Shown piece by piece: positions 30,306-32,615 of a stretch of 32,970 nucleotides of DNA; position 1 is the first letter of the stretch, and every line of letters begins with the position of its first letter. A program made the translations under genes and the position numbers. The stretch lies in contig CAJWLU010000030.1 of NCBI GenBank assembly GCA_913043225.1, positions 1 to 32,970 of the forward strand, written 5' to 3'. The stretch is from an uncultured Acidobacteriota bacterium (GTDB lineage: Bacteria > Acidobacteriota > Vicinamibacteria > Vicinamibacterales > UBA8438). The notes under the pieces are model-generated. The model saw only the letters and a list, made by a program, of their open reading frames with translations. It was not told the DNA's origin and made no database searches.

Positions 30306-32615
30306 TTGTCGCTCGAAGAAAAGTACGACGAAGTACGGCAGCTCATCCAGGTCGGCAAGGAGAAGGGCTATCTCCTTTATGACGAGGTGAACGAGCTCCT
30401 TCCCGCCGAGATCACCTCGTCGGACGAGCTCGATGAGCTGTTCACCACCCTCGGCAACAACGGCATCGAGGTTGTGGACTCGGAACAAAAGTACCGAGAG
30501 GACAAGCTCCTCGACCGTCGCAGTGAAGGATCAGACGACATCGAGCTCGATCTGACGCCCAGTGCGATCGACAAGACCAACGACCCAGTCCGGATGTATC
30601 TCCGGGAAATGGGCACGGTCCCGCTGCTGACCCGAGAAGGCGAGGTCGAGATTGCCAAGCGGATCGAACGAGGCAAGCTGGCGATCATCAAGTCCATCTC
30701 TCGGATGCCAAGCATTGCGCGCGTCGTTGTGCGAATGGGCGAGTCGCTCAAGAACGGCGAGCGCACGATCCGCGAGCTGGTGATCTTCTCCGATGACGAG
30801 GTCACCGACGACAAGATCAAACGCCGAGCCAAGGCCATCATGGCCGAGATCGAGGTTATCCGGAAAACCCGGCTCGACGTGATCCGGCGAGAGAAAAAAG
30901 TCGGCACGATCCCGAAGCGGGAAAAGAAGCGGTACCGGCGGAACTATCGCAACCTGCTCCGAGCGCGGGTCAAGCTATCCTGTCTGATCCGAGCCATCGA
31001 GTTCACCGAGCCGGTCAAGCGTCGGTTGATCGACGAGGTCAAGGAGGTGGCCGAGGGCATCCAGCGGATTCAGCGTGAGATCGAGTACCTCGACCGTCAG
31101 CTGAAGGCCAAAACCCGCCGAAAGGTCAAGGAAGAAGATAAGCGCAAGGTTACACGGCGTCAGCGTGAGCTCAGGACAGAGCTGCGCGGGCGGGCAGAGG
31201 CTCTAGAGCAGTCGATTCCCTCGTTGGACCACACGCTCTACACCATCCTCCGGGGCGAAATGCAGGCCGAGCTCGCCAAGAAAGAGCTGGTCGAAGCGAA
31301 CCTGCGACTAGTCGTCTCAATCGCGAAGAAGTACACAAACCGCGGTCTCCAGTTCCTGGACCTGATCCAGGAGGGCAACATCGGCCTCATGAAGGCCGTC
31401 GAGCGCTTCGACCACAACCGCGGCTACCGCTTCAGCACCTACGCCAGCTGGTGGATTCGTCACGCCATCAGCCGTGCGCTGGCCGACAAGGGCCGCGCGG
31501 TGCGCATCCCGGTCCACATGCTCGACACCTACAACCGCGTCGCCCGCGCCACCCAGGCCATCGCGACCCGGACCGGCAAGGAGCCGACCCCCGAGGAGCT
31601 CGAGAAGGAGACCGGCATCGCCGCCGAGAAGCTCGAGAAGATCAAGGGCTACTGGGCCGAGACCCCGTTCTCCCTGGACCGCCCGGTCAACGACGAGGAC
31701 GGCCGTAAGTTCATCGACTTCCTCGAGCAGGAAGACGCCCCGAACCCCTACGAGGAGCTCGTCAGCCAGAAGTGGAGCGAGGAGGTCCGCCGCCTGCTCG
31801 ACCCGCTCACCGCTCGTCGGGAGGCCCTGGTCGCAGAGATGGAAGGTCTTTCCAACGACCTCGGAGTGGAGGAACGCCGTCGCGCCCGTCAGCGGTACTT
31901 CGAGGAGCTCGCGCTCCTGGAGTCCCAGGTGACGGGACTGCAGGAAGAAGCGCGTGACCTGCAGGACCGTCTGGTCAGCAATCCCGATGCACCGGAAGCC
32001 GGTCGCACCGAGGTGGACCTGCGCCGTGTGGAACAGGACCTGGACGACGTGCTGGTGGCTCTGGACGAACTGCGCTCGGTCGGTCCACGAAGCGACTGGG
32101 AAGAACGCCGCGCCGACGCCGAGCAGCGCTTCTCGGACGATGTCGCCTCACTGCGCCGCGAATACCGTGACCTCCGTCGCAGTGTGTCGGGTGGAGATGC
32201 CGAGCTCATCGCGACGCGTCTGGACACGCTGCACTCGAGCCTCGAGTACTCGCTGGGTCGGATGACCGCACTCCGCTCGCGGCTGTCGTCGATGGAGTCG
32301 TCGGAGCTGGCCCGTATTCGCGCCCGCTTCGAGCACGAGGTGAAGGAAGTCGCGCAGCAGAAGGTCGAGTACGAGCTCACGCTCGATGAAGCCGAGCTGG
32401 TCAGCGCCGACCTCACCCGTCGTGGGTTCGGTCGCCTGGAAGACTTCTTCGCCGATTCCATCCTCCGTGCCGACATGGGCATCGTGGATGTGTACTGGGC
32501 GCGGACCCTGGACATCGTCGATCAGCGCACGCGCGTCGCGGAAGAGAAGGCCCGTCTGCTCAAGGATCTGGACATGCGCTTCGACATCATCCGTCAGAAG
32601 CTGGGGCAGGAATGA
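30306..32615 (+). CDS. rpoD: RpoD-like ORF, mosaic: primary-sigma regions 1.1-2.2, then regions 2.3-3 of a different sigma70, then an unrelated coiled coil; region 4 absent
   Basis: SD GAGGAGG with TTG start; [46 protein letters not shown]. This is followed by non-RpoD-consensus [21 protein letters not shown]. There is no region-4 HTH (LEEVG..TRERIRQIE). Confidence 0.8.

Follow-up and report, generated by a model that had tools for sequence, protein, structure and literature searches.

Does an uncultured member of the Acidobacteriota (Vicinamibacterales, UBA8438) possess a primary sigma factor that lacks region 4? The window analysed here, which is the whole of contig C30 of genome G000 (32,970 bases), ends in an open reading frame that begins as a sigma factor and then runs into an unrelated tail. 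If true, a primary sigma factor without region 4 would call into question whether housekeeping transcription requires -35 recognition and contact with the beta flap. The original prediction, made from the letters alone, favoured mis-assembly, and this reading is borne out: the pieces of the frame have distinct origins, the host and middle pieces continue natively in other contigs, and the fusion occurs on one contig. We conclude, with a probability of about 0.98, that the 769-aa fusion is an assembly artefact at the contig tip and that the host has an ordinary RpoD with region 4. Judged by sequence, the chimera has three sources, not two: the host RpoD, a sigma gene of Sandaracinus type and a TPR operon of Myxococcota type. 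The relevant features of the window are as follows.

1..57 (-): foreign left tip, about 19 MalQ-like (4-alpha-glucanotransferase) codons in frame with tgt (PF02446, NF011081)
58..760 (-): 5' part of the host tgt, placed by relatives; the 3' part is at the end of contig C48
28484..30253 (+): host dnaG (DNA primase; Pfam); the identical protein is on 7 contigs, the longest of 171,395 bases
30306..31396 (+): true 5' part of the host rpoD, aa 1-364, with regions 1.1 and 1.2, the non-conserved region and regions 2.1-2.2 (L063 RpoD, X1 contig)
31359..31396 (+): joint 1, a word of at most 38 bases common to the host rpoD and a foreign sigma gene, in region 2.2 (contig fits, L063 comparison)
31359..31802 (+): foreign piece 1, a part of a sigma-70 gene of Sandaracinus/Polyangiales type that spans regions 2.2-3.2, aa 352-499 (P0047, X3 contig, GC3)
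31782..31802 (+): joint 2, about 21 bases (7 codons) compatible with the foreign sigma gene as well as with a TPR gene, the shared length being inferred from homologues
31803..32615 (+): foreign piece 2a, the last ~270 residues of a TPR protein of Myxococcota type (650-800 aa) with weak GltC likeness (L013/P0004)
32612..32892 (+): foreign piece 2b, the start (~92 codons) of the gene that comes next in the donor operon (67% identical to L013:6804-)
32893..32970 (no strand assigned): last 78 bases, after joint 3; L013 likeness ends at 32892 and the + frame has no NCBIfam match

Reading frame and domain content

The 769-aa frame (30306-32615, +) has a TTG start and no internal stop, and it adjoins dnaG on the downstream side; dnaG is the usual gene upstream of rpoD. 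Pfam places regions 1.1 (aa 5-70), 1.2 (aa 93-124), 2 (aa 328-397) and 3 (aa 409-483) in it. The families for RpoD regions 1.1, 1.2 and 2 (PF03979, PF00140 and PF04542) all score above cut-off; PF04539 (region 3) does so too, but its stretch derives from the foreign sigma gene. Region 4 (PF04545) has no Pfam match in the frame or anywhere on contig C30, and none of its eight matches across G000 is on C30. No Pfam family, TPR repeats included, matches aa 484-769. The frame also falls short of the curated RpoD cut-offs (NF004208, 408 versus 555; TIGR02393, 236 versus 354). The predicted sigma frame without region 4 that continues into a tail is therefore present in the contig as described, with its frame open and Pfam regions 1.1 to 3 in place.

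The tail had been described as a coiled coil of about 265 residues. Its acidic character (60 D+E versus 44 K+R over aa 503-769) and a heptad-like period above chance are both confirmed: hydrophobic residues recur with a period of 3.5 residues at a strength of 0.72, versus 0.55 +/- 0.07, a value reached by 2 of 300 shuffles. The coiled coil itself is predicted from this periodicity. The stop codon of the frame overlaps two start codons, ATG 32612 (ATGA) and ATG 32615 (TGATG), of which the second is the one used by the homologue in L013. The stop-start coupling noted earlier is thus real, while the signal peptide ascribed to the downstream gene is seen in its N-terminus by eye only.

Codon usage divides the frame into three parts: GC3 is 0.80 for the host codons, rises to 0.96 for the 135 codons that follow 31396, and is 0.78 for the tail. 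The abrupt relaxation reported at about 31812 is real (0.96 to 0.78), and it arises because foreign piece 1 ends there. However, the value of 0.96 holds only for those 135 codons; since the host codons before them stand at 0.80, a joint further upstream, at 31359-31396, is indicated. The join had also been placed slightly too far to the right: the sigma-like donor ends at 31802 (aa 499), not at 31811, and TPR-like sequence starts near 31782.

The host rpoD and the first joint

The first 364 residues agree with the RpoD of a related locus, L063, at 319/325, 26/26 and 13/13 residues in the three aligned blocks. At the DNA level, L063 and the window are 91-100% identical per 100 bases up to 31399 and at most 68% identical beyond. 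The host contig of X1 fits the window up to 31396 and the donor contig fits it from 31359, which delimits the word at joint 1; the word shrinks to 29 bases if the host carries the L063 letter at 31388. In 11 of 11 related genomes, identity to the relatives' RpoD is 100% at aa 331-365 and then falls to 60, 37-42, 27 and 22-27% over the four bins that follow. The regions just after aa 365 are normally the best-conserved part of RpoD, so this drop is not drift. The original two-part reading is accordingly incomplete: two sigma genes of different lineages make up the sigma part, and a further joint lies at 32892.

Relatives of the host gene are ordinary. Among 30 relatives searched, 28 gave strong matches over aa 1 to about 515 and two were cut by contig ends; none of the 30 matched past aa 551 of the frame. 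Fifty-seven metagenome loci hold a relative of the host-specific part, and they comprise 47 complete RpoD with region 4 and 10 that run off the end of the locus; the tail is absent from all 57 (local scores 37-77). Queries from G001, G015, L063, L064, L066, L068 and others were used to look in G000 for the genuine 3' end of rpoD, the tRNA that follows it and the DNA further on, and none was found: the matches were only to other sigma genes and other tRNAs. The true rpoD continuation is unassembled or unbinned. Nor does G000 hold any other full-length primary sigma gene; it has only a 306-aa alternative sigma factor, which scores below all RpoD cut-offs listed.

In L063, positions 5500-10426 hold the rpoD 3' end, a tRNA with a CAT anticodon and about 4 kb beyond without counterpart in G000. 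A tRNA with this anticodon stands behind rpoD in all four related loci tested. Among the region 4 matches of G000, the one at G000:C16:70346-70489 lies in a 490-codon open frame, longer than the other seven region-4 frames.

A foreign sigma gene in the middle of the frame

Residues 352-499 are identical to P0047 at 148 of 148 positions. P0047 is labelled as a sigma-70 subunit of Sandaracinus sp., and it continues into a normal region 4. When aa 366-502 were searched alone, P0047 again matched at 99%, and those of the 120 matches listed that have a named taxon belong to the Myxococcota, Polyangiales or Sandaracinaceae. Members of the P0047 family (Polyangiales/Sandaracinaceae) are 91-99% identical over regions 2.3-3.2 among the same 120 matches listed. 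Of the RpoD, RpoS and SigB cut-offs listed, none is reached by P0047 and its relatives.

The two foreign pieces probably come from different donors, because the middle piece reaches a best identity of only 40-42% in five genomes that bear the TPR family, including that of L013; none of these five is the exact donor genome.

The tail and the TPR operon

At joint 2, aa 493-499 (31782-31802) are identical to P0047 at 7 of 7 residues and to the TPR protein P0004 at 5 of 7, and DNA likeness to L013, the best genome locus for the tail, starts at 31781. The tail was thought to resemble the C-termini of large Myxococcota TPR proteins, and a search with the tail alone substantiates this likeness. It is 86% identical to L013/P0004, with aa 1-266 of the tail covered in L013, and it corresponds to the C-terminus of proteins of 649-800 aa in 43 of 43 matches; most of these have TPR domains and none has a listed sigma domain. 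Proteins in the P0004 cluster carry the names of Myxococcota TPR proteins. The 30 donor loci that carry the tail are labelled Myxococcota (7), Deltaproteobacteria (8), 'uncultured Enterobacterales' (9) and others (6), and none of the 30 has a sigma match. The tail was not found in any of the 150 other genomes of the host's phylum searched. An exact search of metagenome contigs with the 28 bases to the right of joint 2 gave no match, so that the exact donor was not met there and the fusion has no second copy among them.

The downstream frame belongs to the same donor operon. Its homologue lies directly behind the tail in 17 of 30 donor loci, and in L013 it is a 1155-aa TPR protein, to which likeness stops at 32892, 92 codons into the gene. 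The gene order in L013 is a PBP4 gene, a 232-aa gene, a 744-aa TPR gene, the 1155-aa TPR gene, a GltE-like gene and a TolQ-like gene. Since the tail and the next gene stand there in the same order and with the same overlap, the stop-start coupling was imported with the foreign piece.

The operon of large TPR genes at L013:3786-12797, with weak GltC/GltE likeness and a TolQ-like gene, was the one locus examined for gliding-type neighbours. Three proteins of the donor family score 56, 53 and 32 bits with GltC (NF033756; cut-off 450), and GltE scores 115 in L013 (cut-off 225). Values so far below cut-off make the donor operon only Glt-like. From these likenesses, it may possibly represent a divergent gliding-type apparatus of uncultured Myxococcota-like bacteria.

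The two tips of the contig

The right tip ends in the 78 bases after joint 3. At the left edge a join of the same kind had been suspected, and it was found: positions 1-57 match PF02446 (E 4e-4) and NF011081 (E 7.2e-7), and PF02446 has no other match in G000. The tgt gene of five of five relatives matches the window only down to 58-60 and then continues into C48, the end of which (8857 downward) holds the 3' part of tgt and overlaps window positions 58-69 by 12 bases. C30 and C48 are thus probably neighbouring contigs, and the short overlap suggests thin cover at the tips.

Independent contigs

Nineteen public runs hold part of 30300-32970, although none holds half of it; four were compared (X1, X2, X3 and X5), all as assembled contigs, which drop rare variants, and none of the four holds half of the stretch's words. 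A 23,114-base contig of X1 equals the window at 2396 of 2397 bases over 29000-31396 and then departs; over the following 30 letters it agrees with the normal L063 rpoD. X1 and the source of the assembly may not be independent. The host contig of X5 (57 differences) ends at 31387. In X3, a 614-base contig fits 31359-31802 with one difference and diverges on both sides, and exact pieces lie over 32430-32892: one covers 32430-32608, and another matches 32582-32892 with no differences and then departs at 32892. X2 has the host at a depth of 9-10 and an exact tail piece (31971-32151) at a depth of 3.1. Thus X1 and X5 hold the host piece only, and X3 holds the middle piece and the tail without the host.

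No contig bridges any joint among the 25 pieces listed of 112 from the four runs. Depth in the bin 31793-31925 is zero in three runs and 0.47 in X3, where the end of the 614-base contig accounts for it, and the depth table leaves no room for a bridging contig at joints 2 and 3. Native continuations are found elsewhere in X1 at 31396, in X3 at 31359, 31802 and 32892, and in C48 at 58. These contigs and homologues show where the pieces come from, where the joints lie and how the host and middle pieces continue natively.

Protein collections give the same picture. Six of six neighbouring proteins of the window occur on seven contigs each (the longest of 171,395 bases), whereas the 769-aa fusion occurs on one contig only, the one of 32,970 bases, and the combination of a sigma factor with such a tail was met in none of the other listed proteins and loci compared. 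One member of the neighbouring-protein clusters is labelled Acidimicrobiaceae. No protein covers both sides of joint 2 among the 120 matches listed of 1545, nor among 90 matches obtained from 1.84 billion representatives. P0242 seemed to match past joint 2 (query 1-113), but its match stops at residue 64, and its region 4 is normal. This 340-aa protein is seemingly a multi-piece chimera in its own right, with an unrelated N-terminus, Sandaracinus-like sigma regions 3-4 and a topoisomerase-like stretch by eye.

Proposed origin of the fusion and alternative explanations

The assembly would have lost the true path inside the highly conserved region 2.2 of the host rpoD and crossed, via the shared word of 29-38 bases, into the sigma gene of a Sandaracinus-like bacterium. 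After 444 bases, it may have crossed again, via about 21 bases, into the TPR operon of another Myxococcota-like bacterium, and a third crossing at 32892 would lead into a fourth sequence; the left tip probably went astray likewise. Sixteen of the 25 end-to-end contig overlaps in G000 are exactly 55 bases long, which suggests an assembler with a final word length of 55. The default series of metaSPAdes is 21, 33 and 55, with contigs carried from round to round. Since the shared words measure 29-38 and about 21 bases, less than 55, only the early rounds could have linked paths through them; we infer a multi-k de Bruijn assembler with a final k of 55 that introduced the joins while working with short words (k 21-33) and then carried them on. 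The same survey of end overlaps, which covers tips with a partner contig, contains one other long overhang, of 44 bases, between C16_R and C2_R. It was considered as a foreign tip and rejected, being by eye a near-identical copy with few differences.

That the frame stays open is explained by joint 1 joining homologous genes and by short shared words of GC-rich genes often being in phase. Words of 11-15 bases common to 20 host and 30 donor genes lie in frame on the same strand in 20-46% of cases, versus 17% at random, although the donor loci are related to each other and the counts are therefore not independent. Composition does not betray the foreign pieces, which score -1.82 to -1.86 in a 6-mer Markov model (background -1.896 +/- 0.038) and so go unflagged, with values equal to or above those of host DNA; only the last 78 bases give a low score (-1.99), from a stretch too short to count. 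Chimeric molecules from library amplification, instead of the assembler, would look the same.

Homology-facilitated illegitimate recombination uses conserved stretches and microhomology. A real but transient event of this kind, in which foreign DNA entered rpoD and the assembler followed a dead or dying allele, fits the position of joint 1 in the best-conserved stretch of homologous genes, the microhomology at joint 2 and the common marine habitat of the donors. However, three donors would have to follow one another within 1.6 kb and a fourth would be required at the other tip, every one of them ending at a contig end, and the foreign pieces are 99.8-100% identical to contigs of free-living donors. 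Moreover, G000 shows only the 306-aa alternative sigma factor and no other full-length primary one. Such an event is very improbable.

Still less credit can be given to a functional primary sigma factor in which a helical bundle stands in for region 4 and which reads extended -10 promoters or recruits a partner via its coiled coil. The frame is open across both joints, and sigma factors with TPR-rich C-terminal extensions exist (ECF42, as far as the consulted part of PMC8999054 describes them). In addition, a sigma-A mutant that lacked region 4.2 showed activity in vitro on test promoters according to the consulted part of PMC3173786, which suggests that a factor without region 4 is not inert in principle. 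Against this stand the canonical region 2.3 onward of the host in X1 (unless X1 is another strain), region 4 in 47 of 47 complete relatives and the occurrence of the fusion on one contig. The tail, furthermore, comes from a different operon, the next gene of which comes along as well and is cut after 92 codons. The -35 boxes pointed out in the window are also present (TTGACA at 2104 with CATAAT 16 bases on, and TTGCAC/CATAAT near 13190). A rare strain that had acquired a tri-lineage rpoD allele through two in-frame recombinations, with foreign regions 2.3-3.2 and a helical bundle for region 4, is just as far-fetched. An assembly artefact is thus retained as the explanation of the fusion.

Consequences and other features of the window

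The artefact has no biological importance, but it bears on data quality. A false 769-aa protein is deposited in NCBI- and ENA-derived collections. A frame that stays open across a joint at a contig tip does not show that a fusion is real, even when the stop-start coupling behind it is intact. Positions 1-57 and 31397-32970 should be trimmed from the contig, and whatever else was found at contig tips of G000 calls for a check.

Four other genes of the window deserve mention. A 50-codon Lys/Ala-rich frame (2226-2378, +) with repeated KKKVA units is small-histone-like by eye and has a TTGACA-16-CATAAT promoter upstream and a hairpin with a T run downstream. The gene at 2436-4631 (-) encodes a HEAT-repeat protein to which a cyclophilin domain is fused at the C-terminus and whose N-terminus, by eye, looks like that of a lipoprotein. 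Two proteins have no Pfam match: one of 194 aa (13225-13809, +), which lies behind the promoter-like site near 13190, and one of 151 aa (24523-24978, -).

Comparison with known systems

The frame resembles RpoD (NF004208, TIGR02393) in that regions 1.1 and 1.2, the non-conserved region and regions 2.1-2.2 are genuine host sequence behind dnaG; it differs in that regions 2.3-3.2 come from another lineage and region 4 is missing. Its aa 352-499 are those of the Sandaracinus/Polyangiales sigma-70 factor P0047, which has its own N-terminus and a normal region 4. With the TPR operon of L013 (gltC-gltE-like plus TolQ-like), it shares a tail at 86% and a next gene at 67% identity, in the same order and with the same stop-start overlap; in contrast to L013, the first gene is here cut down to its last third and the second to 92 codons.

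ECF42 proteins are ECF-type factors that keep region 4 and lack region 1.1. The frame studied here has region 1.1, no region 4 and no TPR repeat match in its tail. The likeness lies in a sigma factor with a C-terminal extension, which in ECF42 measures about 200 residues and is linked to TPR proteins, as given in the consulted part of PMC8999054.

Among near-complete MAGs of a benchmark, one or more interspecies chimeric contigs occurred in 141 of 687 with metaSPAdes and in 444 of 640 with MEGAHIT, and conserved regions are named as a cause in the consulted part of that preprint (bioRxiv 10.64898/2026.10.15.759294). The contig described here is like those cases in having foreign DNA joined within a contig at a conserved region, unseen by marker scores; G000 is rated 96.15% complete and 0.56% contaminated. 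Unlike the cases in that part of the preprint, where fusions are not mentioned, this single contig of 33 kb carries four joints, of which three fall in a stretch of 1.6 kb, and two of its joints lie inside one open frame, which yields a plausible-looking fusion protein.
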